A DNA stretch of 64,000 nucleotides from Escherichia coli. GTDB lineage: Bacteria > Pseudomonadota > Gammaproteobacteria > Enterobacterales > Enterobacteriaceae. Under the pieces are notes generated by a model. That model was not told the origin of the DNA. It searched no databases and saw nothing but the letters and a program-made list of their open reading frames with translations. The first letter of the stretch is position 1. Every line of letters starts with the position of its first letter. Both the position numbers and the translations under genes were made by a program. Positions 1 through 17,064 of the stretch are shown here, piece by piece. The stretch is from NCBI RefSeq assembly GCF_965641715.1, contig NZ_OZ282453.1. One strand, written 5' to 3'.

Positions 1-186
1 GCAGTAACACAGCCCAAAAATACCGTTGAACAAAGTCTTCTTGATCAGGTACTCATTTCAGAAAAAAACATATATACCGTTAATGGTTATGGCACTGATA
101 GTGATGTTCTGCAAGCCATGATTTCTGCTAAAATTGATAACAATGAATACCTTAAGCAATACGATATCAGCAAAAAGAAGGTATAG
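1..186 (+). CDS. 3' end of an unknown ORF (5' end outside window), AT-rich
   Basis: Open frame 1 from the window edge to TAG at 184-186; the next ORF starts 4 nt later. Confidence 0.3.
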   Translation, partial: AVTQPKNTVEQSLLDQVLISEKNIYTVNGYGTDSDVLQAMISAKIDNNEYLKQYDISKKKV

Positions 187-189
187 GAT

Positions 190-633
190 ATGTTATTGAA
201 ATACTTAAGAAACCTGATTGTAAGTGTTTTTTGCACCTTGTTCCTACTGAGGTATATCCCTCAGATGGGGCATGCTGACATACTTACAGCCTCCGGGGTT
301 ATTTCAACTGTATCCGGTATTTTATTTGGTTTTATTTTAGCCACAATATCAATTTTTAGTGCTGCTAGCGAAAACTCAAATGGAATAATAAAAGCATTAA
401 AAAACAACAACATACTTCAAGTTATTATTGTAAATCTATTAACCGCAGGTGCATCTTTAATTACGGCATGCGTTATTGCTTTGATAGCAATGTTTGCCAA
501 TGAAAAGACATTGTTACATGGAGAAAAAATAGAATTTATTTTAATTATCGAATCTTTATCTCTTCTTATCATTTCAGTAATAACTTTTGCCTTTACATGG
601 AGAAAAGTAAACTGGATACTCCCCCACATTTAA
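190..633 (+). CDS. Small hydrophobic membrane protein (about 4 predicted TM segments), AT-rich cargo gene
   Basis: 147-aa ORF with hydrophobic stretches; low GC; convergent with the Q-like gene. Confidence 0.45.
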   Translation: MLLKYLRNLIVSVFCTLFLLRYIPQMGHADILTASGVISTVSGILFGFILATISIFSAASENSNGIIKALKNNNILQVIIVNLLTAGASLITACVIALIAMFANEKTLLHGEKIEFILIIESLSLLIISVITFAFTWRKVNWILPHI

Positions 634-656
634 AAAGGGCAGAAATGCCCTTTTTT
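634..656. terminator. Rho-independent terminator hairpin between convergent genes
   Basis: GGGCA-GAAA-TGCCC stem-loop followed by TTTTTT, immediately after the TAA stop at 631-633. Confidence 0.5.
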
Positions 657-1034
657 CTACTCCATTTCAAGTTTAACATCCAGCATTGAAAGGCATCCAT
701 CAATAAACCCTTCAGCCATCTGTATCTCTATACGTATCAATTTCTCATCTTTTTTGCGAGCTCTTGCAAGCTTTCTTTTCGAGATGCCATACAGGTAATG
801 GGCCACAATCAAAGAATGCTCGTACGGTTTTCGCTTTTTAAGAAGAGCAAGACAACCTTCAATAATTAATGCATCACTATCTGAACAAGCCTGACGTGTT
901 TTGCTTGTATAGGGAAGAAGCCCTTTAAACCCAGCAGCTATAGGAGAATAGTCTACTCCTGAACTATCACTCGCCGCCCATGCTCCCCAACGATCCAGAA
1001 CCATTTGAATATCACGCATCAACTTTCTCCACAA
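657..1034 (-). CDS. Phage antitermination protein Q family
   Basis: 125 aa; N-terminus MRDIQMVLDRWGAWAA and cysteine-rich middle match recalled prophage Q-like antiterminators. Confidence 0.55.
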   Translation of the reverse strand: MWRKLMRDIQMVLDRWGAWAASDSSGVDYSPIAAGFKGLLPYTSKTRQACSDSDALIIEGCLALLKKRKPYEHSLIVAHYLYGISKRKLARARKKDEKLIRIEIQMAEGFIDGCLSMLDVKLEME

Positions 1035-1036
1035 AA

Positions 1037-2032
1037 TCAGGCCAGCACGCCAATTGCCAGCGCACGATCGATAAAACGAAATATCAGCTCCAGCTGGGAG
1101 CCATACCTCTCTTCAAATGCCACGGTATCCGCATGCAGCTCGTCGTGATGCTTTCTGCACAAAGGCAACACAAAAAGGTCATGCGCTTTTGTACCCATTC
1201 CACACTGACCGTGGCCTATCAGGTGGTGGGGATCATCAGCGGGCTTTCCACAACATGCACACGGCTGTGTCTTAACCCAGCGCGTGTACTTTTCATTAAC
1301 CCAGCGGCGACGTTTTGGGCGTAACATAAAAGACTCCGGCGACTCCGGATCCACTTTCAGCGCCAGCACCTTTTTCGCTTTATCCTGGATGATGCTGGTG
1401 GCAGGAACCGAAGGCACAAGGTCACTTTCCCGGGTGACAGACGGCACAACAGGCTTCGGTAATCTCAGTGCCTTACGGGCTGCACTTTCCGGTAAGGCAT
1501 CCGCCAGATCATTACGAATCAGCCACCAGCACAGTTCCGGCATTGTCACAACGTGACTGTCATCAAAACCGAGATCCCGACGCACAACAGACAACACCCA
1601 GCGGGCACAGTTATCCGTTGCCATTGATTCCAGCCGTTCCGTGAACTGATCGCGCAGCTGGTTATCGCAGTGCCAGCACAGACGGATTGCGCCCGGAGCG
1701 TGTCGCATTGTGGTCATGTTCTCGCTGTGCCAGTCGGAATGAGGCCACTGGCAGCCTTTTTCACGAAGTAACCAGCTTTCAAGACATTCCACGCCACCAG
1801 CACGACGGATCACTGCCTCATTGCGGAACACGGCCCGAACGGCAGGATCATCCGCCAGCGGTTGTGATGCCGCCGGAACGGCACCACTGGCGAAAGATGA
1901 ATAACGTTCCGGCTCAGGCTCCAGCAGGACACGCCCCTGCATAAACAGGGGCATCAACTCTGAACCTGGCCTGAACAATACGATCCCCATACGCGGGGCA
2001 ATTTCAGGGGTCAGTAGTGCTCTCACGGTCAC
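1037..2032 (-). CDS. DUF968-family phage protein (YdfU-like)
   Basis: 331 aa; C-terminal cysteine/histidine cluster (CACCGKPADDPHHL ... CRKHHDELH) typical of DUF968. Confidence 0.5.
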   Translation of the reverse strand: MTVRALLTPEIAPRMGIVLFRPGSELMPLFMQGRVLLEPEPERYSSFASGAVPAASQPLADDPAVRAVFRNEAVIRRAGGVECLESWLLREKGCQWPHSDWHSENMTTMRHAPGAIRLCWHCDNQLRDQFTERLESMATDNCARWVLSVVRRDLGFDDSHVVTMPELCWWLIRNDLADALPESAARKALRLPKPVVPSVTRESDLVPSVPATSIIQDKAKKVLALKVDPESPESFMLRPKRRRWVNEKYTRWVKTQPCACCGKPADDPHHLIGHGQCGMGTKAHDLFVLPLCRKHHDELHADTVAFEERYGSQLELIFRFIDRALAIGVLA

Positions 2033-2033
2033 C

Positions 2034-2831
2034 TCAATGAACGGTATCGAGCAGCTTTAACAGCTCAGGGAATCGGGATTCGAAGAAATGCGGCTGCGTC
2101 TCGCGCGGATTTGCGGGACTGGTGATATTCTTGCCGAACATGCAGCCTTTCGCTGTCAGCGACCAGAATTTTTTGATGTTGTTAATCGCGGTACGGCTGT
2201 ATCGTTCGCGCTGCTCGACGATCCCCAGCTTCACCATCTGGTGATATGCCTGATTAGCTGTCAGGCGGATACCATACTGCTTCAGCAGTGCACTCAGTGA
2301 CAGCGTGGGGCGGCTTGAGCCATCAGGCGCGTCAGCAGGAGCATCAATGGCATAGCGCGGTGCCAGATTCGGTAAGCCAACAGCCTCCTGAAGCTTCTGA
2401 CAGGCTCCAAGCACTGATGAGTTAGACAGGTTTAATTCCCGGCGCATAAAGTCCAGCAGGATCACACCAGCCTGCATCTTGTCAGCAGCCTGTCCGGATA
2501 ATTTTTCCGGTGCGCTGGTTACCATGTCGAAAGTACGGATCACCTTCAGATGGAATGACGGGCTGATCCACATTGCATAGGCATACACCAGTTCTTTGCA
2601 GACATACGTCCCCTGGTTATTTCCGCCACGAATAACGTTAACTGGCTCTATATTGACCGAGTTGCAAATCTGCAACTCGCTTATTAAACGCTCAGTTTGC
2701 TCATTGCGGAGCCAGAATGCAGGCTTATGCTTATCCAGAGAACCAGCAGCCCTGTGCAGATCGTTCAGGCTGTAACGCCCATAAGCATCACGACGAACTT
2801 CAATACCATCAATAACCATCAGATTATTCAT
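2034..2831 (-). CDS. KilA-N domain protein (putative antirepressor)
   Basis: N-terminus VIDGIEVRRDAYGRYSLNDLHRAAG matches the KilA-N DNA-binding domain signature. Confidence 0.6.
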   Translation of the reverse strand: MNNLMVIDGIEVRRDAYGRYSLNDLHRAAGSLDKHKPAFWLRNEQTERLISELQICNSVNIEPVNVIRGGNNQGTYVCKELVYAYAMWISPSFHLKVIRTFDMVTSAPEKLSGQAADKMQAGVILLDFMRRELNLSNSSVLGACQKLQEAVGLPNLAPRYAIDAPADAPDGSSRPTLSLSALLKQYGIRLTANQAYHQMVKLGIVEQRERYSRTAINNIKKFWSLTAKGCMFGKNITSPANPRETQPHFFESRFPELLKLLDTVH

Positions 2832-2850
2832 ACTTCGTTTCTCCTCTTAA

Positions 2851-3240
2851 TCAGGCGGCTGCACCCGCCGGTTTCTCATACTTACTGATAGTGATCTCGA
2901 CCTTCCCTTTCGGGATAACCGGTCCCCACTCCACCAGCATTCTTTTCACCTGTCTGTCGTCTTCCCACACACCCGCGTGGGTCAGGGCGTCAAACAGCGC
3001 CTTGTTATAGTTGTCCAGATCGCGGATCCGGTTATCCGGAGGAAACAACACGATCTCCACTGAAGCAGGTGCCGACGTTGGTTTCGGCAGACGACGTAAC
3101 TGCTCAACTATTGCTGCGCATGCCGCGCTCTGGAATTTGCGCCCCGCTGCGCTTATCAGACTCTTACCAGCAAACGCCCCTTTGTTGGGGTGTCGCCAGT
3201 ACGTGTTCACGCTGGGCGGGAAAGGCAGGATCAGCTTCAT
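2851..3240 (-). CDS. rusA: Holliday junction resolvase RusA
   Basis: 129 aa; LPFPPSVNTYWRH ... IRDLDNYNKALFDALT motifs of the RusA family; lambdoid position upstream of Q. Confidence 0.75.
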   Translation of the reverse strand: MKLILPFPPSVNTYWRHPNKGAFAGKSLISAAGRKFQSAACAAIVEQLRRLPKPTSAPASVEIVLFPPDNRIRDLDNYNKALFDALTHAGVWEDDRQVKRMLVEWGPVIPKGKVEITISKYEKPAGAAA

Positions 3241-3596
3241 ACTTTCAGGCCCCTCTCATGTAACCAGTGGGCTGCACGCAGTCTGGCGTTTTCCTCACCG
3301 GCAAGCAGTGCGCGGATAATCCCGGCTGCCTCGCTGTCGTCGTCCTTCACTGTGGTATGAAGCGTGATACCCCGGGCCACGCCACGCTTTATCGTGATGA
3401 CGCCTTTTTTCTCCAGTGCGCGAAGATGCTCCACCGCTGCATTCACCGAACGGTATCCCAGCATGGCTGCCACCTCCTGATTGGTTGGCGGGAAACCACG
3501 TTCTTTCTGATAAGAAATCAGCATATCCAGCACCTGCTGCTGGCATTGAGTTAACGTCGTCATTAAGCCCCCACGTAATTCCCTGACAGATACCAC
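3237..3596 (-). CDS. LexA-like winged-helix DNA-binding protein (phage regulator)
   Basis: 119 aa; segment QQVLDMLISYQKERGFPPTNQEVAAMLGYRSVNAAVEHLRALEKKGVI resembles the LexA N-terminal DNA-binding domain. Confidence 0.4.
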   Translation of the reverse strand: MVSVRELRGGLMTTLTQCQQQVLDMLISYQKERGFPPTNQEVAAMLGYRSVNAAVEHLRALEKKGVITIKRGVARGITLHTTVKDDDSEAAGIIRALLAGEENARLRAAHWLHERGLKV

Positions 3597-4057
3597 TCAT
3601 CACCCGATACAGCGCGCTTGCTGCTTTTCCGTAAACACTGCTCACGACGCGCCAGAAAATTGTTTCGTTCTGGCTGGGAGTGGCTTTCACGGAATGCCGC
3701 CATCCACACCGTTGCAGCACGACGGTATAAGCCCCTGGACTCCAGTTCTTCAGCCTGGCGGGTCAGGCACAAAATCACACGGGGATCGTTAGTGCCGACA
3801 TAGAAATTGCGCACAGGTCTGGTTTCACGAACAGATTGTGGTTCCGGCTCCTGCGCTCTCTCAGTCAGGCGCGGGAAATGTCTGCGTGTATCTCCTTCAC
3901 AACGGTGAGCCACACGCCCACTCTGACGTAACTTGCTTGCTGACTGCAGAACGCGCTGCCGTGAGTAACCAGCAAAAGCATCCGCAATGTCTCCGGAAGT
4001 ACACCCCGGATGGGCTTCAATGAATTTCTGAACTTCATTCAAAAGACTCATAATCAC
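3563..4057 (-). CDS. PerC-family-like transcriptional activator (start codon uncertain)
   Basis: Motif AEELESRGLYRRAATVWMAAF resembles the recalled PerC/Pch signature (LE.KGLWRRAA.RW). Confidence 0.35.
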   Translation of the reverse strand: MIMSLLNEVQKFIEAHPGCTSGDIADAFAGYSRQRVLQSASKLRQSGRVAHRCEGDTRRHFPRLTERAQEPEPQSVRETRPVRNFYVGTNDPRVILCLTRQAEELESRGLYRRAATVWMAAFRESHSQPERNNFLARREQCLRKSSKRAVSGDEWYLSGNYVGA

Positions 4058-4872
4058 CCCCTGAATCCTGCCGGGATCTGGCTGTAGTCCACGTTGTCGT
4101 AACTGGCTTTGAAGTACGGGTCCTCGCGTCTGGCTGCAGATACCGCAGGAACTTCCCAGGATTCTTCGAAATGACGATCCGGACCAAAGAACGTGACAGC
4201 CTGTTTCACAAATTGTGTGCCGCTGTTACCCATCGCAGATACCCAGCCCGCGTAGCGTTTCACACCTTCCAGCATGGTTTCGGGGTTTACCCCCTCATTC
4301 AAACGGGCTTTCCAGGCTTTGAAGGCTGCAGATTTTGAATTACCACCAGCACGTTTGGGATATGCCAGCCATGCCTGCTCAAACTCCGGAGAGTATTCCG
4401 GCCGGTTTGAACGAACTCGCACGGACTCATCAACTGATGCACCAACAGCTATTGGTTCATTGACTGGTTCTTTGACTGGTTCAAAAGAGTGACTGGTTCT
4501 GGGTGAATCTCCTGCACTACCCCCTGGTGCAACTCCTGCACTACCTGGTGAATTTGCTGCACCAGATAGTGAATTATTTGCACTACCCCCTAGTGAATCT
4601 CCTGCACCATCCAGATGAAGGAGATAGATATTACTTGAGTTACCTTTTTCACCTTTCCGGGTGACTTTTTTTACCAGCCCGGACTCACAAAGGGCCGCAA
4701 TATGATTCATCACAGAACGTTTGCTAATCTCGCACTGGTCAGCAATATGCTGGTAGCTGGGCCAGCACTCACCCTGATCGCTGGCATTATCAGCCAGCTT
4801 GATCAGAACCAGTTTTCGCAATGGATTACCCACTCGAATTTTCATCGCTTTAACCATCAGCTCCATACTCAT
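4054..4872 (-). CDS. Phage replication-initiator-like protein with N-terminal HTH and low-complexity Gly/Ser/Ala linker
   Basis: 272 aa; N-terminal wHTH region (NPLRKLVLIKLADNASDQGECWPSYQHIADQCEISKRSVMNHIAAL); internal DNA repeats; lambda O-like position. Confidence 0.5.
   Translation of the reverse strand: MSMELMVKAMKIRVGNPLRKLVLIKLADNASDQGECWPSYQHIADQCEISKRSVMNHIAALCESGLVKKVTRKGEKGNSSNIYLLHLDGAGDSLGGSANNSLSGAANSPGSAGVAPGGSAGDSPRTSHSFEPVKEPVNEPIAVGASVDESVRVRSNRPEYSPEFEQAWLAYPKRAGGNSKSAAFKAWKARLNEGVNPETMLEGVKRYAGWVSAMGNSGTQFVKQAVTFFGPDRHFEESWEVPAVSAARREDPYFKASYDNVDYSQIPAGFRG
4500..4620. repeat. About five imperfect tandem 21-24 bp repeats inside the replication gene (iteron-like), followed by an AT-rich stretch
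   Basis: Repeated unit GTGAAT..CTGCACTACC(CC)CTG visible at 4503-4620; resembles the lambda ori layout within gene O. Confidence 0.45.
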
Positions 4873-5105
4873 GCTGCACCTCCGAGATGCTTCATGTTTT
4901 TTCCGGAGCGAAAGGTTATAAGCGGCATACTGACGCGGTAATTACGGCCCAGCGGTTCACAAATCACCTTCTGACATTCACGGTCCACCAGGCTAACACG
5001 TAGAACATGCCCTGCGGGCGTGGTGTACCACTGACCAACGGTAGGAATTGATGTTTTTTTACGCTGAAGCAAACGGCAAATATTGAGGATCAACGGATTA
5101 AGCAT
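4869..5105 (-). CDS. Small hypothetical phage protein
   Basis: 78-aa ORF overlapping neighbours by 4 and 8 nt in the same operon. Confidence 0.3.
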   Translation of the reverse strand: MLNPLILNICRLLQRKKTSIPTVGQWYTTPAGHVLRVSLVDRECQKVICEPLGRNYRVSMPLITFRSGKNMKHLGGAA

Positions 5106-5934
5106 GACGATGCCCTCCGCTGATATTCAGGAAACGGTGAATATGAAGATTAGCCTTATCCGCCAGACGAATACGTTCAGCCTGCAAGTTAAGAAGGGTT
5201 TCTACCAGAACCTGATGCGCCTGCGGATCCGAAAGAGTTACCTTGCGCAGAGCACGTAGTGCAGTTGTTACATAGCTGAGTTTATGTAAGTCTTCATCAT
5301 TCAGACGAGTGAGGGCTGGGACAGTAGCCATGATGGCAGCCTCCGTATGCAATGGATAACTTCCACCACCGGAAACGCCAATTTCGCTGGTGGTGAACTG
5401 AGCAGGGTTGGCGTAACCGGCGCATACGGAAACCGGCGCACCTTTCGGTGCCCCCACCCAGCCCACCATAATTTGGGTATAGCTGAGTTGTAGCAACAAA
5501 AAAGACGCTAACGCGCCAATTGTCGCCGTATGCAATTCCAGGACGCCAATCCCGGCACCCGCTTTATAAGGTGCCTGAACAGTGTAACGTCCCGGAATGG
5601 CAGAATCAATGTGCTGGTGGTCCTTCACACTCAACAAAATCACGCCTGAATTTCCACAAAGGGCTAAAGCACTCATGCGGGTAGTCTTTGCGAAGATAGA
5701 TAACGCGCTGTGTTTCTGGTTCCCAACGAATAACATGGACATAAAGCCCTCTTCCGTCACGAAACCAGCGGTTAAGTTCCCGCACAACTCGCCCCCCACA
5801 GTCAGGTAAAGTTCTCTGTGGTTACTTACAGCCAGGTGATTTGGTAATCTGCATTCATGCCGTAACAACAGGTGTTCAGCGACACTGACCACCAGCTGTT
5901 GCGACAAACGGTTATTTGCCGTTAAACTGTTCAT
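5098..5934 (-). CDS. Hypothetical phage protein (early right operon)
   Basis: 278-aa ORF, co-oriented and overlapping neighbours; no motif recognised. Confidence 0.35.
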   Translation of the reverse strand: MNSLTANNRLSQQLVVSVAEHLLLRHECRLPNHLAVSNHRELYLTVGGELCGNLTAGFVTEEGFMSMLFVGNQKHSALSIFAKTTRMSALALCGNSGVILLSVKDHQHIDSAIPGRYTVQAPYKAGAGIGVLELHTATIGALASFLLLQLSYTQIMVGWVGAPKGAPVSVCAGYANPAQFTTSEIGVSGGGSYPLHTEAAIMATVPALTRLNDEDLHKLSYVTTALRALRKVTLSDPQAHQVLVETLLNLQAERIRLADKANLHIHRFLNISGGHRHA

Positions 5935-6494
5935 GCGTTAGTTTCTCCACAGACACAAAACGCCACGACGCCCGGAGCTGCACACTCGCGGGCGTCACTC
6001 TTTTCTGGAGCGCAAAAGATTTTGTAGACCAGTGCTGCATGCTCTTGGAGCTTCGAAATTGACAGATACAACTCATCATTAATTGCTGTCTGCTCGTGTG
6101 GCTCCACGACCCCATCTTCGATTGCCGAACGAATCTGCTTTGAGTAATTCCCGATCTGTTCGATGACTTCCAGCAGGCGCTGGTTTATATCGGCGTTCTC
6201 TACTTCCTCAATTTCAGGAAGCGATACGAACACCCCACCAGCAGACTGTGCGACAGCATCCGCAATGTAGTGAGTGCCAGCCGCGCGCTGTAAAACCATT
6301 GCCCATCCCAGCGGGAAAATCTGATCGCCATCGGCACGAAGGCGGTTAAATAATGCGTTCTCTGTTACATCCAGCCAGTCAGCTGCTTCAGCGTAACCAC
6401 CCGGCAACGCTGCGATAGTTTTTCTGACAGCTTTCACGTACCACTCAGGCTGTTTTTCTACTTTCCAGTGATACTTACCCACGGTTAGCCTCAT
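5931..6494 (-). CDS. Hypothetical phage regulatory protein in the CII/YdaT position
   Basis: 187-aa ORF immediately downstream of the cro-like gene; function inferred from position only. Confidence 0.3.
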   Translation of the reverse strand: MRLTVGKYHWKVEKQPEWYVKAVRKTIAALPGGYAEAADWLDVTENALFNRLRADGDQIFPLGWAMVLQRAAGTHYIADAVAQSAGGVFVSLPEIEEVENADINQRLLEVIEQIGNYSKQIRSAIEDGVVEPHEQTAINDELYLSISKLQEHAALVYKIFCAPEKSDARECAAPGVVAFCVCGETNA

Positions 6495-6525
6495 CGTTCT
6501 GTGGTTAAAAATTGAAGGTGTTCTG

Positions 6526-6726
6526 TTAATCTTTCGGATAGATATCCGGCCTTAAGTCAGATTTCGTAATTGCACCTGACGTGCATTGCTCAAGTTTTTT
6601 CGCCAGCACAAAACTGGCTTTTTTATAACCATTGAAAACCAGCCGTAAGTAGCCAGGTGTTGAGCCAACTTTTCCGGCCAACTCGCCCTGCTGTTCTTTG
6701 GTTAAAGAGTCCCAATACGCTTTCAT
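6526..6726 (-). CDS. Cro/YdaS-like HTH regulator
   Basis: 66 aa from an internal ATG with GGAGG 9 nt upstream (the ORF track begins earlier); sequence MKAYWDSLTKEQQGELAGKVGSTPGYLRLVFNG; divergent from cI. Confidence 0.5.
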   Translation of the reverse strand: MKAYWDSLTKEQQGELAGKVGSTPGYLRLVFNGYKKASFVLAKKLEQCTSGAITKSDLRPDIYPKD

Positions 6727-6816
6727 ACAATATGTACCTCCGATATACATATTACATGATTGAAATGAACCTTCAAGATACTTGTACCTTATCGGTACAA
6801 AGGTTTTAATTTCGTT
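6727..6816. promoter_or_regulatory. cI/cro intergenic switch region with operator-like palindromes
   Basis: Inverted repeat CTTGTACC-TTATC-GGTACAAAG at 6781-6802 and further TGTAC-containing sites at 6727-6757. Confidence 0.45.
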
Positions 6817-7491: not shown

Positions 7492-7949
7492 TCAATATTT
7501 ATGAACCTGCTTCGGCAGGTTTTTTTATACTTGACAATGTACCCATGGGATACATAATGTATCCAAAAGAAACATGAGGCAGGCAAGATTCAAACAAAAT
7601 TTGGTTGTAACACGGCGTATGGCACATGCGTCGTTAGCGGTCTGGGGACGTTAAAGGGGACAATCCACTTCTTGCTCGGGCAAACAAACCAGGTAGCCGG
7701 AATGTGCAAGTCAATGATGATGCTGATAAGACGCCTAACCAGCGTGGCGATCCGGTTTGACGCCTGGGAAGAGACCAGGGTGCAACGATGAGGGCATTTA
7801 TAGAGCCGCGACAAAGTGTGGTGCCGTAACTGGCTAAGTGCTCTCAGCGTTGTGGTAATCCGCGAAATGGCGCGGCGGTAAGTATGGCGGGGTTACTCTT
7901 TCCCCGTTGAGGACACCGGATTGTCAGGTTGACCATACGCCTGAGTGAC

Positions 7950-9412: not shown

Positions 9413-9539
9413 TTTCATTACTGCAAATGCCCCTGCGGGGGCATTTATGGAAACGTAATTTACTCAATAATCGCCGGATGGTGAGGGATTCTTTTTACCA
9501 GAATTCAGCGCGGTGCAGCGCATATACGTGGAGAACAAA

Positions 9540-10076: not shown

Positions 10077-10429
10077 ATGTTTTCGAAATGGAAGGGTTTC
10101 TTCGCGGGAAATGTGTACCGCGAGATCTGAAAGTGAACGAAACAAATGCTGAGTACCTGGTACGTAAATTCGACGCGCTTGAAGCTAAATGTGCGGCACT
10201 GGAAAACAAAATAATACCAGTGTCAACTGAACTGCCACCAGCAAATGAAAGTGTTCTGTTATTTGATGCTAATGGAGAAGGCTGGCTGATTGGCTGGCGT
10301 TCTCTCTGGTACACCTGGGGACAAAAAGAAACCGGAGAATGGCAGTGGACATTTCAGGTCGGGGACCTTGAAAACTTCAATATCACTCACTGGGCAGTAA
10401 TGCCCAAAGCGCCGGAGGCTGGAGCATAA
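10067..10429 (+). CDS. YfdS-like phage protein
   Basis: 120 aa; overlaps neighbours by 10 nt and 1 nt, suggesting coupled translation. Confidence 0.4.
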   Translation: MRMNVFEMEGFLRGKCVPRDLKVNETNAEYLVRKFDALEAKCAALENKIIPVSTELPPANESVLLFDANGEGWLIGWRSLWYTWGQKETGEWQWTFQVGDLENFNITHWAVMPKAPEAGA

Positions 10430-11049
10430 TGACCACATTTACCAATAAAGAACTGATTAAAGAAATCAAAGAACGAATCAGCAGCCTAGAGGTTCGAGAC
10501 GATATTGAGCGCCGTGCTTATGAAATTGCTCTGGCATCGCTGGAAGAGGAGCCGGTGGCATGGCTGCATTCAGACAATGGCTTAGGTATTCCGGCAATAA
10601 CCAGGAGCAAAAACATTGCTGACAGTTGGTTATCAATGGGCTGGTATGTTCAGCCGCTATATATAGCCAAGCCAGTACTGGTGGTGCCAGATGCTCGTCC
10701 GTCTTTAAATAATGGCATAGTCGGTTTTGATGAAGGCTGGAACGCCTGCCGCGCCACCATGCTTCATGGTGCCAAACCTGTAAGCCAGACTTACAAGTTG
10801 AACAAGCTGCCGGGCAACTCTCCGGTAACTCAGGATGGTTGGATAAGCTGTAGTGAGCGAATGCCGAACGATAAACAGTATGTTTGGTGTTGGGGTAAGT
10901 CTTACGGCTGGACTGAGTGCGATACCTTCGAAGGGTATTACGATTGGTCGAGAAACAAATGGTGGGCAGTTACTGACGATGGGGAAGAACCGGCATCGAA
11001 AGTAACCCACTGGATGCCGCTACCGGAGCCACCGCAGGAGGTGAAGTAA
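10429..11049 (+). CDS. Phage protein with DUF551-like C-terminus (YfdT-like)
   Basis: 206 aa; C-terminal WWAVTDDGEEPASKVTHWMPLPEPP resembles DUF551. Confidence 0.4.
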   Translation: MTTFTNKELIKEIKERISSLEVRDDIERRAYEIALASLEEEPVAWLHSDNGLGIPAITRSKNIADSWLSMGWYVQPLYIAKPVLVVPDARPSLNNGIVGFDEGWNACRATMLHGAKPVSQTYKLNKLPGNSPVTQDGWISCSERMPNDKQYVWCWGKSYGWTECDTFEGYYDWSRNKWWAVTDDGEEPASKVTHWMPLPEPPQEVK

Positions 11050-11243
11050 TGAACAACTTAATGACAACTAAACAAGTCGCCGACTTCTGTGGCGTTTCAG
11101 TATCGACCGTTCTTCGCTGGAACAGCGTAAACAGGAGAACTGGCCAGAAATACAGGCCTGACTTTCCAGATCCTGATATTAAATCCTGCCCAAATAAATG
11201 GGCATCACGCAAGATATACAGGTTTGCTGGAGTTATTGAGTGA
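11049..11243 (+). CDS. AlpA-family HTH protein / putative excisionase
   Basis: 64 aa; TTKQVADFCGVSVSTVLRWN HTH typical of AlpA/Xis-like regulators; lies upstream of the int region. Confidence 0.55.
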   Translation: MNNLMTTKQVADFCGVSVSTVLRWNSVNRRTGQKYRPDFPDPDIKSCPNKWASRKIYRFAGVIE

Positions 11244-11278
11244 TGGGTATTAGCTCATATCAGAACTAATACCCATCA
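11241..11278. promoter_or_regulatory. Perfect 13-bp inverted repeat immediately after the xis-like stop codon
   Basis: TGATGGGTATTAG-N12-CTAATACCCATCA; no T-run follows, so a protein-binding site or RNA stem is as likely as a terminator. Confidence 0.3.
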
Positions 11279-11445
11279 ATGACACAGAGCCAACTACCCA
11301 CCCTGTGTCAGGGGCTAACTTTTAACACCATAATTCACCGCTAGATAAAAACTGTATTGCATTGCACGAGCGGCGCAGCATTATCAGTTAGAGTGTCTTT
11401 ACCTTGTTAGGCTCCACAGTTCGCACTGTCCAACGCCTGTCACTT

Positions 11446-14400
11446 TCACACGCTGCGCCTTCGAGAATATTCATTTAATCGCTGATAACGAACATCTTGC
11501 TCCAGTTGTGGAGCAGCTTGAACAATTTGAAGCAAGCATTGCCCCAACTCTCGAGGCCCCCAGTGTTGTTCGGCAATCACGGCATTCAGCAGGGATAGAG
11601 CGTCCGCAGGATATCGGCTGCAAATATCTGATTCTAGCAAAAGGCGAACGTCGTAGCTAAGGTGTTCGAGCGGTTGCAGCCAGTCCTGCACCACTGCCAA
11701 AGCCGCCGGAAATTCACCTCGGGCAGCAATCACCATACGAGTCAACGATTCGGATATGCGTGGGGTGGCCAAGTTGCGGGACTTTGGCCAAACCTGTTGC
11801 CAAAATGGCTGGACACGATTTTTCCAATACTCCTCGCGCTGATCGCCCGCACCTTCAAGTGCCTGGTATAACGCCTGCGCGGCTACCTCCAGACCTTCTT
11901 GTGGAAGAGCACTAATTGCCGTTCGGAACTCCTCCACGGTATATCCCTCGGTAGGGCCCAGAGCTGCATAAGTCAGGAAAATAGCGAATTGCTGCCGGTG
12001 CTCGCCAAGATCAGAATAGTGATTGGCGCTCTCCAAAAAATCTGACTTGAAAGCTATCAGCAACGGTTCATACAGGCGTGGCGACCAGAGGAAGCCTTCC
12101 CACACAGCTTTTGCTTCGACGGGATTACTCCAAGCAAACAAGGGCAATAGATACTGTTCGGTCCAAGGTCGATCTACGCGAAAAAATGCGATCAGCCGCG
12201 ACCCCAGCAACACCCGACCATGGCGGAATAGCTCTATCTGTACATTACACAATTTGGTGAAAAGTGTTTTCAATTCAACAGGAAGCAAATCATTGTCATT
12301 CGGGTTCTGTTTGAACCATAGGGTGATCAGTGATTGCGTGACATGCCCAATGGGATGATTGATCGCCGTAGAAACAGGATCATAGGTCTCAATTCCGTTT
12401 CGAATGGTGCTAGACTCTGGGCTTGTTTCTATCATCAGAACCCGACGACAAAGGGCCAGTAGAATCTCCTCGTGGCAGAGGATGGTCTTCGAAGCCTCCT
12501 CCATCCACCAAGTGACAGCGTGGGAAATCTCCTGAAGTACTGCGTCAGGCATGTCAAGCACCAACGGTGCGGCGTACCGCCACGAACGCAAAATCATCCC
12601 TGGTTCAGCCCAAGTCTGCAGAGCTTCACGCCACCGACCAACAGGCCACACATCATCTTGTGATAGTTTACGTAACGCATACAGACTGTGAAAAAAGCGC
12701 GTACGGCAAACATCACTCCAAGTGTCCTCATAGAAAGGCAGTCTTTCTGGCATAGGCTTTGCGAGCCATTGCACTAATTCCTGCCACTTACGGGGCGCAA
12801 TGTCGACATCTATACTCTCCTCGAAGCCTGGATCACCGGTTCCGCTCATCCAGTGAGAGAATTCATCACGCTCGTTGGTTGCCAGTTGCCATTTTGGGTA
12901 TGCTGTGGATATTTCCGTCAAACGTGTAGCCGCAGACTCTCCCAAAACAAGGCCCGCTCCCCTGAGCTTCTCTAGACACAACCAGACGGAATGAGCCACC
13001 AAATAATGCCACCTGTCTGCTTCCAAATTATCCTCGTACATCTCGCGCGGAGGCCCTGCCAAGATAGCAGTTTCCAGACGCTCTTGTGCAATTCCTGTCA
13101 GATGTCGTCCCTGCAAAACAAACAGTCTGAATACCTCTCGCCGAGTATCCGTGGCCCACAACCACCATGAACCGTCCTCTAACAACCAATTAACCCACCG
13201 CTCAGGTGGTATGCAGTTGTCTTGGCTTGCGGCAAACAGTGCCAGACGTTTGAAGGTGGGATATGGCAACTCAAACCAATTCTGAGCAATGCGCGAGGCC
13301 TGATCGCTGTCTTTGGCTCGAACGGCTAACCATGAATCCCGAAGTAATTCAATCAGGCTCACCCAATCGCGGAACCCCCGGTTCTGCCAGTGCGGAGTGA
13401 TGGACGGCAAATCCCAATGCGAGCGGTCGTGACGATCGTCGGACTCTCCCAACTCCCGCAACAAGTCCAGTGCATCACGCAACAACTGCTGAAAATCTTC
13501 CAACAGGTATGGCAAGGACGATTTCCATGACTCGTCAGCAAGGTCGAACAGGGTTGAACGTACGTAATCAGCAGTCAGCACCAGCTCCCAATCCACCAAT
13601 TGCTTGATTCGCAAGGGTTCATCAGTGCTGCTCGAATCGTCTTCACTATAGCGAAACGGCCGCCTCAACATAACCTTGGGAGAAAGCAACTCGCGTAACT
13701 CCAAGCGCAATGTAGTCGTCAAGCCTTCATTCTTTAAGCGGTTTTGCCAACGATACAAATCCAGGTTCTGCAATGGCGATTTCACACGACCACTAAGCAG
13801 AAGCCGCCATAAAGTAGACATAGGTGGACCAGGAATAGCCAGGGGGGAATGCAAGAGAATTTCATCTAACTCAGAAGTCTTACGCTCCCGCATCAGTGCT
13901 GCTAAGCGATCTAGTTCGCTCTCAATCAGAAACATCCAACGGTCGTGTATTTGTCCGCCGCGTTCAGCAATCCATATGATCAACCTAGGGTCGCCCAGAT
14001 AACGAACTAGCCAACGGGCTATATGGGACATTACGTCATCCCATTTGCTAGCACTGACACATCCAGAAACCAGCGACATCTGCGGGGCCAGCTCATAGGG
14101 CGCAGGACGCTGAACCAGACTGAATCGGAGTTTCGGGTCAATTTCGACATGCGGAGATACACAAAAGCGTGGCAGATCGCTGTATTTAAATCGTTCGTCC
14201 GAGAAAGCTTTCAATAACCAATCCAGCGGCGGTGCAGGATTGAGTTCCGCAAAGCGTTTTGCTGGTAAACCTGATTTATCTGACAAGGCCCACAACATCC
14301 GACCAACGAAATCGTCCTGACGAGTGCTGTCCTGCGGGCGGGCCAGAGCATGTTTGACGACTATAGCCTCTTTGCCCTGTATACCATCTCGATAAGTATC

Positions 14401-15273
14401 TGCCCAAGCGTGCAACGTTTGATGCAGCACTGAATGATCAGTGGAGCTCGCCGGTACGGTGTAAAGGATAGGAGTGACCCCTTTGGCCTCCCACTCGATG
14501 GCTTTCCGGTGCTCCTGCCCCGGCTCACACTCCCCCAGTGCCCATACTTGTGGTGTGACTTCACCGAGCCTCCGATCTGCTGCAAGCGCATCCATCATGT
14601 AGCGCAGTACCGGGTCGTTGATGCTGTAGCCAACGAAGCAGACCACATAGTTACGAAATAACTCACTCACAAAGCGAGCTGCCCAACGCTCAGTGAGATA
14701 AGCCAAGCCAAAGTCACCGCTGGTAACAACCAGACGATTCAGGGCAGTATCATCCGCCTTTTCCGGTAACAGCCCATGCAGGTATACAAGTCCATCCCAG
14801 CGGCTGTTTTTTGGAATTGGCAGCATCGGCGCTACATAGGCCTGAAAAGCCTGGCCTGTACGTTTAGCTGCCACATGAAAGAGACGGTCAAAGTTGGTAG
14901 TGACCAATCGAAGGGCACCCTCGCGGCTACGGGCTAAACGTAACAGCGCCGCCTGAGTATCAATAGCGCCCCTACGACGGAGCTTTGGCTTAAGGGCTTT
15001 TTCCAACGCGCGTCGGACGGCTATACGCTGCCCTGGTAAGCGCCGTTCCAGCAAATCTAATGTGCCGTCAAATTGCCCACGCTCGAAAACCTCACGCTCA
15101 ATTTCTGAAAGTGTTGTTCCGTTCCTCTGGTAAATTAGTTCTACCAACCCTTTGAAACCAGGTAAACCAGCAGGGTAGGAAATGCCTGCTCCACAGAAGA
15201 ACACAACGCGCCCTTCCTCGTGCGCCTGCAAAAGCTCATCAGGAATATCAGGGCCGTTGGTAATGAATTGCAT
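11446..15273 (-). CDS. Large SIR2-like domain protein (N-terminal SIR2-type NADase-like domain plus about 1000-aa C-terminal domain of unknown function); candidate anti-phage defence protein
   Basis: 1275-aa ORF; N-terminal motifs VVFFCGAGISYPAGLP, VTTNFDRL, VYLHG, VCFVGYSINDP; no P-loop seen downstream; sits between xis-like and int. Confidence 0.6.
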   Translation of the reverse strand: MQFITNGPDIPDELLQAHEEGRVVFFCGAGISYPAGLPGFKGLVELIYQRNGTTLSEIEREVFERGQFDGTLDLLERRLPGQRIAVRRALEKALKPKLRRRGAIDTQAALLRLARSREGALRLVTTNFDRLFHVAAKRTGQAFQAYVAPMLPIPKNSRWDGLVYLHGLLPEKADDTALNRLVVTSGDFGLAYLTERWAARFVSELFRNYVVCFVGYSINDPVLRYMMDALAADRRLGEVTPQVWALGECEPGQEHRKAIEWEAKGVTPILYTVPASSTDHSVLHQTLHAWADTYRDGIQGKEAIVVKHALARPQDSTRQDDFVGRMLWALSDKSGLPAKRFAELNPAPPLDWLLKAFSDERFKYSDLPRFCVSPHVEIDPKLRFSLVQRPAPYELAPQMSLVSGCVSASKWDDVMSHIARWLVRYLGDPRLIIWIAERGGQIHDRWMFLIESELDRLAALMRERKTSELDEILLHSPLAIPGPPMSTLWRLLLSGRVKSPLQNLDLYRWQNRLKNEGLTTTLRLELRELLSPKVMLRRPFRYSEDDSSSTDEPLRIKQLVDWELVLTADYVRSTLFDLADESWKSSLPYLLEDFQQLLRDALDLLRELGESDDRHDRSHWDLPSITPHWQNRGFRDWVSLIELLRDSWLAVRAKDSDQASRIAQNWFELPYPTFKRLALFAASQDNCIPPERWVNWLLEDGSWWLWATDTRREVFRLFVLQGRHLTGIAQERLETAILAGPPREMYEDNLEADRWHYLVAHSVWLCLEKLRGAGLVLGESAATRLTEISTAYPKWQLATNERDEFSHWMSGTGDPGFEESIDVDIAPRKWQELVQWLAKPMPERLPFYEDTWSDVCRTRFFHSLYALRKLSQDDVWPVGRWREALQTWAEPGMILRSWRYAAPLVLDMPDAVLQEISHAVTWWMEEASKTILCHEEILLALCRRVLMIETSPESSTIRNGIETYDPVSTAINHPIGHVTQSLITLWFKQNPNDNDLLPVELKTLFTKLCNVQIELFRHGRVLLGSRLIAFFRVDRPWTEQYLLPLFAWSNPVEAKAVWEGFLWSPRLYEPLLIAFKSDFLESANHYSDLGEHRQQFAIFLTYAALGPTEGYTVEEFRTAISALPQEGLEVAAQALYQALEGAGDQREEYWKNRVQPFWQQVWPKSRNLATPRISESLTRMVIAARGEFPAALAVVQDWLQPLEHLSYDVRLLLESDICSRYPADALSLLNAVIAEQHWGPRELGQCLLQIVQAAPQLEQDVRYQRLNEYSRRRSV

Positions 15274-15455
15274 TCCTTTTCCTCCTATCCAATGTGCACG
15301 TTCATTCGAGTAAATGAAGGCAAGGGGTTACATCTTATTATACCGACCGTGCAAATCCGGCTTCCTAGCAAGCTACTTTACTTGCCAACTCATAATGTCC
15401 GAACTCCGAACAAAGCGGACTGCTAGATTTGATTGCGTTCTAGCTACGCAAAATA

Positions 15456-16679
15456 TCATTTCGAGCCTGAACGAGTACAAGTAACAATCGATTCAACTCT
15501 CTCCCACCATGCCTGGTAGGCTTTACGCTGTTCTTCTAGATAATCACTCTTGTCATAAACTTGCCATACACCTGGCAGTTTATGACCGAGCATTATTTCA
15601 GCAATATGAGGCGCAGTAAGATCAGAAAAGTTTGTTCGTGCTGTTCGTCTCAAATCATGAAGAGACCAATGAGGAAATTGATACCCCAAACGCCGCCATG
15701 CGTACTGCATTAAATTGTAAGGCAGCGACTGCAATGATGTCCGACCAACTGGTTCCCTGCTTCCTTCCTTAGTAAAAAGCATATCGGAACCGTTGTTCAT
15801 AGAGATAACGTATTTTATAAGCTCTTCAACCGGTTCAATAATGGGCCGCTTTAGCGGTTTGCCTGTTATATCCCCTGTCTTATGTCGTTCTGGTGGTACA
15901 GTCCATATTTTATTAATGAAATCAAAATCGTCCACCTTGGCAGTAATTAGCTCTGAACTACGGCAACCAAAATGCAGCAATAGTTTAATGAAGGCCCGGT
16001 ATTTAGGAACCATTCGAGAACCATCGATCGCAGCATAAAGGATTTTAATTTCATCATGTGTCAGAAACCGTTTCTTCTGACCTTTACGGATATCCATATC
16101 TTTACCCGTGATATCCGACAGCGGGCGAGTTTCAATGAGCTTTCTCTTATACGCCCAGACATGGGCCTGCTTTGCGTTAATTAGCAATCGGTCTGCTATT
16201 GCTGGAGTCTTAGTGCTAAGAGGCTCCAGGACTTCTAACCAATCATGCAATGTAGCTGCATCGTGAGGGATATTCCCGATTTTAGAGAACAGGTGCAGCT
16301 CAAACGAGCGGAGTATCTGTTCAGAACCTTTTTTATTTTTTACACAATATGCTTCATACCAAGCACGGATCACAGATTCTACCGTCATGGCTTCAGTAGC
16401 TTTACGTTTTTCTGCCAGCTTGACCAATCGTGGATTGCGGTTTGACTCGAGTTCACCACGAAGACGGATAACTTCTTCTCTGGCCTCTTTTAGTCCAGTT
16501 GCCGGGTAAGTTCCGATATCAAGACGCTCACCTTTCCCCGCCCACTGATAACGATATTGGAACACTACGCGACCTTTCGGTGATACTCTAACAGACAGAC
16601 CATCACGATCGGATTTAACCAAAACCTTATCACGTTCCTTTCCAACGACTGAACGCAACCACGCATCAGACAGCGCCAT
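15456..16679 (-). CDS. int: Tyrosine recombinase / phage integrase with N-terminal arm-binding domain
   Basis: 407 aa; N-terminus typical of P4/CP4-57-like integrases; catalytic region with HDLRRT and LGHK motifs. Confidence 0.85.
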   Translation of the reverse strand: MALSDAWLRSVVGKERDKVLVKSDRDGLSVRVSPKGRVVFQYRYQWAGKGERLDIGTYPATGLKEAREEVIRLRGELESNRNPRLVKLAEKRKATEAMTVESVIRAWYEAYCVKNKKGSEQILRSFELHLFSKIGNIPHDAATLHDWLEVLEPLSTKTPAIADRLLINAKQAHVWAYKRKLIETRPLSDITGKDMDIRKGQKKRFLTHDEIKILYAAIDGSRMVPKYRAFIKLLLHFGCRSSELITAKVDDFDFINKIWTVPPERHKTGDITGKPLKRPIIEPVEELIKYVISMNNGSDMLFTKEGSREPVGRTSLQSLPYNLMQYAWRRLGYQFPHWSLHDLRRTARTNFSDLTAPHIAEIMLGHKLPGVWQVYDKSDYLEEQRKAYQAWWERVESIVTCTRSGSK

Positions 16680-16685
16680 TACTCA

Positions 16686-16750
16686 CCTTGTACAAATAAC
16701 AAAAAACCTCTGCTGTTTTGTACATTATGTACAAGCACATGTACAGATTT
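16686..16750. promoter_or_regulatory. Cluster of TTGTACA motifs, including a perfect palindrome, upstream of int; possible operator, arm site or att-proximal region
   Basis: TTGTACA at 16688; TTGTACAttaTGTACAA at 16717-16733; TGTACA at 16740; AT-rich region 16680-16900. Confidence 0.35.
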
Positions 16751-17064
16751 TTGATGAAAGTAACCTGATCAATTTAAAGTTACATGAAAGAATTTTCAAT
16801 CAAAGAAATCACATAACATCATGTTATTAAATGAGTTATATAATTATTACTCAATTAATTGAAAGGATTTTGAAAGAGTAAAAGAGCTTTTATTTGGGCT
16901 TAATTATTGGGGTGAGAAATAATGGCAAAAGTGCGGCGCTTCGCCACCTCTTGCAAATAAGGAGACAACGTCATAATTCTTTCTTCTTGAGTAAGCGGCA
17001 TCGCGCCGCGCTTGTTGAAAACGAAAAATTGCGGCTATTTTACCCATCAACGGGGGGGAGGCAA

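Follow-up and report, generated by a model that had tools for sequence, protein, structure and literature searches.

The closest described systems are Enterobacteria phage cdtI (NC_009514, 47,021 bp), which has the same gene order as the element reported here from the DUF6731/orf53 cassette through int; Shigella flexneri phage SfV, which has the early region in common with it; and the K-12 prophage CPS-53 (KpLE1), which shares yfdN and yfdP to yfdS with it at 95-99% amino acid identity. CPS-53 differs in being a 10-kb remnant without an immunity region, in its integrase (IntS) and in its integration site, argW. The prophages of EC416 (NZ_AP027404) and AMSHJX01 (NZ_CP030939) share our element's insertion site and integrase, as well as its immunity region and early genes.

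We analysed one 64,000-nucleotide stretch of an Escherichia coli genome (contig NZ_OZ282453.1; hereafter the window) and conclude, with a probability of about 90%, that positions 1-16,923 belong to a temperate lambdoid prophage in the cdtI/SfV mosaic group and make up its early, regulatory and integration half. The prophage type is already described, common in E. coli and ordinary, and it carries the known anti-phage gene dsr1; the visible part is the integrase-proximal one and is inserted in the start of prfC. The prophage's integrase is present in 700 of the 5,426 complete E. coli genomes (about 13%). Query coverage and identity were 71% at 96.8% for cdtI, 69% at 97.3% for phage 2H10, 68% at 97.2% for Ayreon and 54% at 96.3% for SfV, whose match ends at window position 10546 and excludes the xis/int/att module; Stx2c-converting phages covered 69-80%, and across all these phages the identity was 96-98%. 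The backbone is 96-99% identical to these sequenced phages, and the gene order agrees with that of phages sequenced as phage genomes. Identity to EC416 is 99.9% over 1-2500 and 98.2% over 1-10798, and identity to AMSHJX01 is 98.9% over 1025-17100, dsr1 included; AMSHJX01 differs in Q and in its late region, where the head is of HK97 type and the tail sheathed. Colinearity over the whole 17.5 kb was found in no complete E. coli genome of the collection (the best covers 94%), and the relatives therefore serve as proxies only. The Q-side 1 kb belongs to a different mosaic block.

The initial annotation had described a lambdoid prophage, complete in its regulatory and replication backbone and running from Q to a cro-like gene on the minus strand and from cI to a xis-like gene on the plus strand, followed by a SIR2 gene and int. 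Profile searches with Pfam, PHROGs, PADLOC and NCBIfam bore this out, confirming all named genes in their place and order, and the PGAP annotation of near-identical relatives (98.9-99.9%) assigns the same gene names. The proposed extent, 1-16900, stands as a region and shifts at both ends: alignment with K-12 sets the right boundary at the att core (16910-16923), and the left boundary lies beyond position 1, as the window begins inside the element. The minus-strand early genes are as follows:

657-1034, minus strand: antiterminator Q, for the late genes (PF06530 Phage_antitermQ, E=5e-52; phrog_79)
1037-2032, minus strand: DUF968/HNH-like nuclease, a nin-region gene (PF06147, E=7e-80; phrog_96, E=6e-176)
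2034-2831, minus strand: KilA-N domain protein (PF04383, E=2e-26; phrog_129)
2851-3240, minus strand: RusA Holliday-junction resolvase (PF05866, E=1e-14; phrog_34)
3237-3563, minus strand: 108-aa protein with a LexA DNA-binding domain only, without the S24 peptidase domain (PF01726, E=4e-19)
3563-4057, minus strand: PerC-family protein orthologous to K-12 YfdN (PF06069 at residues 100-153, 39 bits with the cutoff at 22.6)
4054-4872, minus strand: replication initiator, O-like/DnaD-like (phrog_270, E=2e-88, and other replication-initiator PHROGs; PF13730 HTH_36)
4869-5105, minus strand: 78-aa conserved phage protein (phrog_1153, E=1e-41)
5098-5934, minus strand: Ash-family regulator (PF10554, E=2e-17; phrog_3960)
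5931-6494, minus strand: cII-like activator of YmfL type (PF06892 Phage_CP76, E=1e-14; phrog_101, CII-like)
6526-6726, minus strand: cro-like repressor with a YmfT/YdaS-type helix-turn-helix (phrog_35; ymfT in PGAP of relatives)

From 6494 to 657, the cII-like gene, replication initiator, nin-type genes and Q follow lambda order, in what is the rightward operon of lambda and here a minus-strand operon. The 108-aa LexA-like protein aligns to positions 1-91 only of the TIGR00498 lexA model. Relatives such as EC416 annotate ash as 5098-5676 with an overlapping DUF4222 ORF, and the Ash/Rha regulator of cdtI is longer than the Ash of the window. Searches of the visible prophage identified neither an N-like antiterminator nor a P/DnaC-type helicase loader, and a single O/DnaD-like replication gene was found with PHROGs. 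An N-like antiterminator and a loader are not required for the group, because sequenced phages of the group have the same gene set. This operon would express cro, cII, Ash, the O/DnaD-like initiator, the nin-type genes (PerC/YfdN, the LexA DNA-binding protein, RusA, KilA-N and DUF968) and Q, which would in turn switch on the late genes off the window.

The immunity region lies upstream of this operon and contains the following features:

6733-6799, no strand: three 17-bp operator-like palindromes TGTAYC-N5-GRTACA in the cro/cI interval, putative OR (regex scan)
6817-7491, plus strand: cI-like repressor of YmfK type with a LexA-type self-cleaving S24 domain (PF00717, E=1.5e-26, full model length; phrog_4)
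7538-7574, no strand: another pair of such palindromes on the downstream side of cI, putative OL/PL before the yfdP-xis early-left operon

The cI gene (plus strand) and the cro-like gene (minus strand) are divergent, with operator-like repeats between them and a second set beside cI. When the palindrome was sought with 0-1 mismatch, the regex scan returned four matches in the entire 64 kb, all of them within 6733-6799 or 7538-7574. The cI sequence shows Ala-Gly (VQAGAW), GDSM and FKRL motifs. By these features, the LexA-like cI (S24), acting on the 17-bp putative operators at OR and OL, probably maintains lysogeny, and RecA-stimulated self-cleavage of cI would derepress the phage.

On the other side of cI are two small ORFs (7590-7814 and 7893-8087) with no Pfam match, followed by the plus-strand early genes:

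8160-8522, plus strand: yfdP (99.2% amino acid identity to K-12 YfdP; phrog_204)
8588-9412, plus strand: yfdQ, DUF2303 (PF10065, E=3e-92; 98.9% identity to K-12 YfdQ)
9540-10076, plus strand: yfdR, HD-domain protein (98.9% identity to K-12 YfdR over 178 residues; phrog_318)
10067-10429, plus strand: yfdS-like DUF551 protein (98.3% identity to K-12 YfdS; PF04448)
10429-11049, plus strand: 206-aa DUF551 protein whose N-terminal 42 residues resemble YfdT (PF04448, E=1e-17)
11049-11243, plus strand: excisionase, xis (phrog_1553 excisionase, E=8e-36)

YfdP, YfdQ, YfdR and YfdS are thus 98-99% identical to the CPS-53 proteins of K-12. The 206-aa DUF551 gene is intact in the window and in cdtI (orf35) and broken in EC416 and AMSHJX01. 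An early operon on this strand would express yfdPQRS, the DUF551 gene and xis. What is the function of YfdR? The initial annotation was right that the gene is YfdR-like, and the HD motif (MHDATEA) is present, but the 5'-deoxynucleotidase activity that it proposed does not follow: YfdR falls below the cutoff of the YfbR 5'-deoxynucleotidase equivalog NF003009 (19.9 bits versus 122) and of the Pfam YfbR-like model (24.1 versus 25.9). The documented activity of K-12 YfdR is binding to DnaA, and its affinities for nucleotides lie far below YfbR's (PMC4776307). By homology to K-12, YfdR would bind DnaA and, when oversupplied together with its neighbours, would curb initiation of host replication.

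Integration was placed beside yjjG, at the K-12 yjjG-prfC junction, by the initial annotation, which proposed to locate att by comparison with that uninterrupted junction. The comparison located a core at 16910-16923; the locus was correct, and "beside yjjG" is refined by the K-12 alignment to a position inside the 5' end of prfC. The integration module comprises:

15456-16679, minus strand: tyrosine integrase, int (PF00589, PF13356 and PF22022, all above cutoff; phrog_1)
16689-16745, no strand: cluster of four TGTACA motifs immediately upstream of int, which may be arm-type sites bound by the integrase
16900-16974, minus strand: orphaned native prfC 5' end, 24 codons and then a stop in phage DNA (K-12 alignment and translation)
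16910-16923, no strand: att core GGGTGAGAAATAAT, encoding prfC residues I-I-S-H-P on the minus strand
17065-17742, minus strand: yjjG

The integrase has arm-binding (PF13356), core-binding (PF22022) and catalytic (PF00589) domains. In the alignment, chromosomal identity to K-12 extends from yjjG through about codon 22 of prfC and ends at window position 16910. The 14-bp core lies within prfC codons 18-22, is identical in K-12 attB, cdtI attP and both EC416 junctions, and occurs once in the window, where 0.02 occurrences are expected by chance. When four sequences (cdtI attP, the junction in the window, the prfC-side junction of EC416 and K-12 attB) are aligned, the classical attP/attB/attL/attR exchange of arms shows around ATTATTTCTCACCC; the int-side arm of the window matches the attP arm of cdtI and is joined to the chromosome exactly at attB. 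The cluster upstream of int holds 4 of the 10 TGTACA sites of the 64-kb window, and two more are present on the opposite phage arm of cdtI and EC416. The tyrosine integrase inserted the phage at the 14-bp core. In cdtI, cdtABC lies near att; this is a feature of cdtI, and the window shows the int-side part of its own prophage only.

What becomes of prfC? The 24-codon stub adjoins yjjG. At the far end of the prophage in relatives, the remaining prfC is fused to a surrogate 5' end brought by the phage (MTSLLAAEVAKRR...), which keeps the frame whole. EC416 prfC is annotated as intact with its N-terminus replaced, and the second att junction with the surrogate 5' end lies at 15877-15890 of collection locus L004. 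A published list gives prfC as disrupted (PMC3603311); lysogens at this site rebuild the frame with a surrogate N-terminus, and prfC should not be scored simply as disrupted. Some prophages at the prfC site are degraded; RM9872-C1, for instance, carries an IS3 element and has suffered a deletion.

We considered whether the PerC-family gene makes this a virulence-modulating prophage, as the initial annotation implied when it stressed the gene's significance for virulence. It had also set a profile search for the PerC-like motif beforehand as a refutation test, and here the motif was supported, the Pfam domain scoring 39 bits against 22.6; in EHEC, the group 1 PerC homologues PchABC activate ler/LEE (PMC7369912). 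However, the protein matches YfdN, a protein of the non-pathogenic K-12 with the annotation "uncharacterised", at 95.1% identity over all 164 residues, whereas its identity to plasmid genes annotated as PerC family is just 31-38% over about 55-70 residues (E 0.01-1), and its N-terminus is extended by about 100 residues. Moreover, LEE activation is not common to all Pch groups, PchE opposing the group 1 genes (PMC7369912), and no LEE is visible in the window. At the same position, the gene of cdtI is labelled dam, with PAPS reductase in its product line. Since the gene in the window is the orthologue of K-12 YfdN, its PerC match should not be taken for a virulence marker. That it encodes a functional Pch/PerC-type activator of LEE or of other virulence loci is very unlikely, and the comparison leaves its virulence significance unsupported.

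Is the prophage whole? Judged from its relatives, it is probably intact, with late genes and a second att off the window: the EC416 prophage is 47,766 bp long, counted from one core to the other, and has lambda-like head, tail and lysis genes. K-12 CPS-53, at 96-98% DNA identity, shows that the same gene set (yfdN through yfdT, torI) can persist as a cryptic remnant, and degraded versions at prfC (RM9872-C1 with its IS3, CE10 with a frameshifted yfdR) point the same way. With its own late region outside the window, our element could likewise be a non-inducible remnant that kept the early/regulatory half and the integration module, the late region being lost or broken. We consider this unlikely, though not far-fetched: all ORFs of the visible 16.9 kb are intact, Q, cI, cro, cII, xis and int among them, as are the operators and the att arm, and we found neither IS elements nor frameshifts nor truncated genes in that interval. 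In addition, the DNA at the left window edge is 99.9% identical to EC416, where it runs into a full late region, and the exact 147-aa protein beside Q has lysis or packaging genes to its left in 10 of the 10 other genomic places listed. A PICI-like phage satellite, or an integrative island that is not a phage but has phage-like regulatory genes, would account for the P4-type arm-binding domain of the integrase (PF13356) and for a defence cargo adjoining int, as in many islands. Against it stand the Q antiterminator leading into a late region, the cI/cro/cII immunity module, the 96-97% identity over about 70% of the length to phages whose full genomes of 44-47 kb have been sequenced, and the full-size 47.8 kb prophages at the same att, and we regard this explanation as having next to no probability. 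For genome annotation, the routine call is a prfC-integrating lambdoid prophage with Dsr1.

The prophage carries accessory genes at two places, between xis and int and beside Q:

1-186, plus strand: 3' end of a DUF6731-family gene that continues off the left edge, first of a two-gene cassette between Q and the late genes
190-633, plus strand: 147-aa protein, second gene of the cassette (phrog_8552, E=1.4e-63, without assigned function)
11294-15410, no strand: variable cargo slot between xis and int (blastn)
11446-15273, minus strand: dsr1, encoding the 1275-aa defence-associated sirtuin 1, SIR2 domain at its N-terminus (PADLOC Dsr1)

In relatives, the DUF6731 gene likewise sits between Q and the late genes; the full-length copy in EC416, annotated as DUF6731, encodes 313 aa and matches Pfam PF20505 (E=1.7e-10), and the fragment in the window has no PADLOC match. 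The 147-aa protein corresponds to orf53 of cdtI, has no Pfam or PADLOC match, is indexed in 1,842 blocks of the collection and adjoins Q in 10 of the 10 places listed.

The dsr1 gene lies downstream of int on the same strand. Its product matches PADLOC PDLC02183 over its full length (2732 bits, residues 1-1275 of 1275) and the NCBIfam equivalog NF041818 with 2057 bits (cutoff 1400), in addition to PF13289 SIR2_2, and 75 of 5,426 complete E. coli genomes have the gene, in most cases with an identity of at least 99%. By blastn, homology to cdtI and EC416 ends at about 11262-11293 and restarts at about 15411-15432. Where the window holds Dsr1, cdtI holds BovA (Borvo, a CHAT-domain protein) and EC416 three genes as one cassette (369 aa, DUF4325 STAS-like, 164 aa). 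Among the 13 elements examined, the slot is occupied by at least 10 different cargos, of which PADLOC v2 recognises Dsr1 and BovA only; the others include an 868-aa protein with a dsRNA-binding motif and HNH, a DUF4365 protein with TPR, the DUF4325 three-gene cassette and several hypothetical-only proteins. It is a tentative suggestion, somewhat short of even odds, that this slot and the plus-strand DUF6731/phrog_8552 cassette by Q (1-633) are unmined reservoirs of anti-phage genes, some of them perhaps new defence or superinfection-exclusion systems. The slot belongs to a family found in about 13% of complete E. coli genomes and is a handy place to seek new single-gene defence candidates.

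How does this cargo compare with known defence systems? DSR1 is the defence-associated sirtuin 1 of Gao et al. 2020, as cited in bioRxiv 10.1101/2021.12.14.472415, and anti-phage activity with NAD+ depletion was reported for DSR1 expressed in B. subtilis (bioRxiv 10.1101/2021.12.14.472415). The allele in the window shares with it the full-length model match and the N-terminal SIR2 domain, and we detected nothing distinctive; by analogy with this homologue, Dsr1 would protect the lysogen from other phages by degrading NAD+. Neither prfC nor yjjG was found by name in the main text of the paper on defence-carrying mobile elements of E. coli (PMC10121019). Like the prophage defence hotspots of P2/P4 (PMC9122126) and those of mobile elements in E. 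coli (PMC10121019), the xis-int slot combines a fixed position in the backbone with varying defence or candidate genes; it differs from them in the phage family, here lambdoid and integrated at prfC, and in the slot itself, between xis and int.

The genes read from the visible part of the prophage in the initial annotation, and their order, were borne out by an ORF listing and profile searches, and the same gene names appear in the PGAP annotation of near-identical prophages of other genomes.

Features of the prophage from Q to int, by coordinates and strand (genes listed with no family were assigned by profile search)
657–1034, minus: Q (PF06530, E=5e-52)
1037–2032, minus: DUF968/HNH-like gene
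2034–2831, minus: KilA-N gene
2851–3240, minus: RusA
3237–3563, minus: 108-aa protein with the LexA DNA-binding domain only
3563–4057, minus: PerC-domain protein (PF06069, 39 bits; cutoff 22.6)
4054–4872, minus: O/DnaD-like replication initiator (phrog_270, E=2e-88)
5098–5934, minus: Ash
5931–6494, minus: cII-like protein (PF06892; phrog_101)
6526–6726, minus: cro-like protein
6817–7491, plus: cI-like repressor with S24 peptidase domain
3' of cI, plus, in this order: yfdP, yfdQ (DUF2303), yfdR (HD domain), two DUF551 genes
11049–11243, plus: excisionase, xis (phrog_1553)
11446–15273, minus: SIR2 protein of 1275 aa
15456–16679, minus: tyrosine integrase, int

No N-like antiterminator was identified in the visible prophage region. 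The LexA-domain protein, encoded directly downstream of the PerC-domain gene, lacks the S24 cleavage domain and could, from its predicted domain content, bind SOS boxes without being cleavable. The KilA-N protein gave a weak PADLOC match to PDC-S22 (E=5e-6).

In a phage collection, the prophage matched Enterobacteria phage cdtI (71% of the query covered, 96.8% DNA identity), Escherichia phages 2H10 (69%, 97.3%) and Ayreon (68%, 97.2%), Shigella phage SfV (54%, 96.3%) and Stx2c-converting phage records (69–80%, 96.3–98.3%), with further matches to phages induced from ECOR strains. These matches place it within a well-known group of mosaic, lambdoid temperate phages. The integrase and its adjacent arm are found in 700 of 5,426 complete E. 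coli genomes, and in 11 of 11 chromosomal loci examined the integrase adjoins a prfC stub and yjjG. prfC is a recognised Stx-phage integration site (PMC8065619).

Where exactly does the element sit? The proposed insertion at the yjjG–prfC junction was confirmed by alignment to K-12, where prfC comes directly after yjjG, with the correction that the site is inside prfC and not merely beside yjjG (17065–17742, minus strand, just past the int end of the prophage). Window and K-12 are identical across yjjG, the intergenic region and the first ~21 prfC codons, and the identity ends abruptly at 16910. Four sequences were aligned: the cdtI attP, the junction in the window, the K-12 attB and, from the related prophage in E. 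coli EC416, the junction on the prfC side. They display the classical exchange of arms about a 14-bp core, ATTATTTCTCACCC (plus strand: GGGTGAGAAATAAT), at 16910–16923; this core occurs once in the window, against 0.02 expected by chance. Thus, the insertion lies inside prfC, at codons 18–22 (I-I-S-H-P), just ahead of the DAGKT of the GTPase P-loop, and it leaves a prfC stub of 24 codons on the minus strand (16974 to 16900). Of ten TGTACA hexamers in the 64-kb window, four form a cluster at 16689–16745, just upstream of int, and the opposite phage arm holds two more; we infer that the cluster represents candidate arm-type integrase sites.

Although prfC is among the genes listed as disrupted by prophage integration (Bobay et al., PMC3603311), EC416 prfC (L004:14352–15938) is annotated as intact because the phage supplies, at the other junction, a homologous but diverged prfC 5' end. 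The surrogate start reads MTSLLAAEV..., and the RF3 reading frame is one codon shorter than that of K-12. At least in this prfC-integrating family, the phage rebuilds the prfC reading frame, and RF3 expression in such lysogens would depend on upstream sequence from the phage side. For the window, an intact far end would read ...TTTGCAATTATTTCTCACCC at the phage arm, fused to prfC codon 23 onward.

Is the prophage complete beyond the left edge? The window starts inside the element, its bases 1–186 being the end of a DUF6731 gene that lies between Q and the late genes in relatives. By comparison with these relatives, the prophage is probably intact (probability about 0.65–0.7). A remnant would fit the existence of decayed versions at the prfC site and the differences in late modules among relatives, which are of a lambda-like siphovirus in EC416 and comprise an HK97-type head and a sheathed tail in AMSHJX01, another E. 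coli genome with a related prophage. It would also fit the lack of any collection genome colinear with the whole 17.5 kb (0 complete E. coli genomes, the best covering 94%); genomes that agree with the leftmost 2.5 kb at 99.9% have different cargo. Against this reading, the visible 16.9 kb is free of IS elements, frameshifts and truncations, neither the operators nor the att arm show damage, and the DNA at the left edge matches EC416 at 99.9% identity. In that genome it runs on into a prophage of 47,766 bp that has a second att and lambda-like genes for lysis, packaging, head and tail. Moreover, lysis or packaging genes lie to the left of the exact 147-aa protein encoded beside Q in 10 of the 10 other genomic places listed, none of which has the same module combination as the window. 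We thus regard a remnant as rather unlikely and favour an intact prophage. A satellite or island reading was also considered and rejected.

The 147-aa protein (phrog_8552) and the DUF6731 protein (313 aa) preceding it form a plus-strand cassette at 1–633, antisense between Q and the late genes, with counterparts in L002:19245–20633, one of the comparison loci from other genomes and phages, and in cdtI orf54/orf53. Exact copies of the 147-aa protein are indexed in 1,842 blocks of the collection; all 10 places listed have it beside Q, in otherwise mosaic prophages. PADLOC gave no match for this cassette, to which no function was assigned, nor for DUF968, YfdQ, YfdR or the EC416 cassette between xis and int.

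Homology to cdtI and EC416 breaks at ~11262–11293, just past xis, and is back at ~15411–15432, just before the int stop codon, and therefore defines a cargo slot. We compared the slot intervals of the window (11294–15410), L002:31422–34339, L005:14927–17221, L008:2786–5392, L009:3782–5329, L010:4064–5305, L011:3382–5322 and L012–L016; across 13 elements examined, the slot holds at least 10 different cargos, among which PADLOC v2 strongly recognised only Dsr1 (window and AMSHJX01) and BovA of Borvo (phage cdtI, 801 bits), a position at which GPEC1035 has a CHAT-domain gene of equal size. The others are a three-gene cassette of 369-aa, DUF4325 (STAS-like) and 164-aa proteins (EC416), an 868-aa protein with a dsRNA-binding motif and HNH (WCHEC020032, the L008 interval), a DUF4365 and TPR protein (EC2341) and five distinct protein sets whose only annotation is hypothetical. 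The 868-aa protein joins PF00035 (E=2.6e-10) to a C-terminal HNH nuclease domain (PF13391), a pairing unusual in bacterial or prophage genes. A fixed slot with changing cargo is familiar from prophage defence hotspots (PMC9122126; PMC10121019), and by analogy the xis–int slot follows this pattern. At its far (tail-fibre) end, the EC416 prophage has genes for a DinI-like protein and a TIR-domain protein, together with a truncated gene with a reverse-transcriptase domain (L004:16158–18800), which suggests a second cargo or defence region at the opposite end of this phage family.

The window's own cargo, the SIR2 gene, encodes Dsr1 (PADLOC 2732 bits across the whole protein; NCBIfam equivalog 2057 bits, cutoff 1400; SIR2_2 domain). 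DSR1 is a single-gene anti-phage system in which NAD+ falls during infection (bioRxiv 10.1101/2021.12.14.472415). This dsr1 was found in 75 of the 5,426 complete E. coli genomes, 66 of the 75 copies being at least 99% identical; a single deposited phage record also has it (Stx2c_JNE082796, 100% identity). A sequence search of solved structures returned only a weak SIR2-domain match (KomC, 8zsf, E=2e-4) and no detectable template for the C-terminal ~1000 residues. Promoter/terminator scanning of 11000–17100 gave counts no higher than shuffled sequence (9 vs 6.9; 7 vs 6.3).

How might the prophage be controlled? In the cI homologue the S24 domain is complete, and the sequence shows Ala-Gly, GDSM and FKRL motifs. 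Five 17-bp palindromes, TGTAYC-N5-GRTACA, lie in the cro–cI gap (6733, 6766, 6783) and immediately past the end of cI (7538, 7558), and all four matches with 0–1 mismatch in the 64-kb window fall within these two clusters, which we take as putative OR and OL. If cI cleaves itself in response to SOS, two operons would then be derepressed, an early-left operon on the plus strand from yfdP through xis and a minus-strand operon of cro, cII, Ash, the replication initiator, nin-type genes and Q, and Q would turn on late genes left of the window. The putative early-left leader contains, close to the start of yfdP on its upstream side, an inverted repeat (8023–8111) with a 39-nt loop and 25-nt arms of 84% complementarity, which could serve in termination or antitermination.

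K-12 YfdR binds DnaA domain I, excess yfdQRS/T inhibits oriC initiation, and YfdR nucleotidase activity is weak relative to YfbR (PMC4776307). By homology, the window YfdR may likewise bind DnaA domain I and restrain host initiation. An effect on nucleotide pools, as first suggested, is less well supported than one on host replication initiation, because this nucleotidase activity is weak and the window protein scores only 19.9 bits with the YfbR equivalog model, whose cutoff is 122.

The PerC assignment passed its profile test, so that by sequence the gene is a genuine PerC-family member, and also an orthologue of K-12 YfdN, with an N-terminal extension of ~100 residues. In EHEC, the group 1 Pch proteins (PchABC) alone are established LEE activators, and PchE opposes them (PMC7369912). 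The hint of virulence drawn from this gene is not supported: its orthologue belongs to non-pathogenic K-12, and likeness to plasmid PerC-family genes is limited to 31–38% identity over ~55–70 residues (E between 0.01 and 1). A role as virulence regulator is thus very improbable. Residues 98–144 also resemble the ANR (AraC negative regulator) family weakly, below the threshold of the model (NF033650, 22.5 bits; cutoff 32).

Elsewhere in the window, a low-GC, immigration-control-type region (~50,900–60,500) holds a 333-aa ORF with no Pfam match (50942–51943), type I restriction-modification genes of the EcoAI/EcoEI family (hsdR 52051–54483, hsdM 54496–56019, hsdS 56019–57776) and a 697-aa GmrSD and DUF5655 restriction enzyme (58385–60478, minus strand) that is intact here; the nearest complete genome has it in split or truncated form. 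An hpa operon, for 4-hydroxyphenylacetate catabolism, lies within ~40,000–47,400. The best complete-genome match to 40–64 kb reaches only 97.5% identity and 95% coverage.

The phage family, its insertion site, Dsr1, YfdN, YfdR and the idea of defence hotspots in prophages are already described; a mildly novel thread lies only outside the window's own content, in the diversity of uncharacterised xis–int cargos and the conserved DUF6731–phrog_8552 cassette beside Q. Gene order in phage cdtI agrees with that of the window, starting at the DUF6731/orf53 cassette and passing through Q, the early genes and xis to int. K-12 CPS-53 is a cryptic remnant that shares yfdN and yfdP–S with the window, at amino-acid identities of 95.1% (YfdN), 99.2% (YfdP), 98.9% (YfdQ), 98.9% (YfdR) and 98.3% (YfdS).
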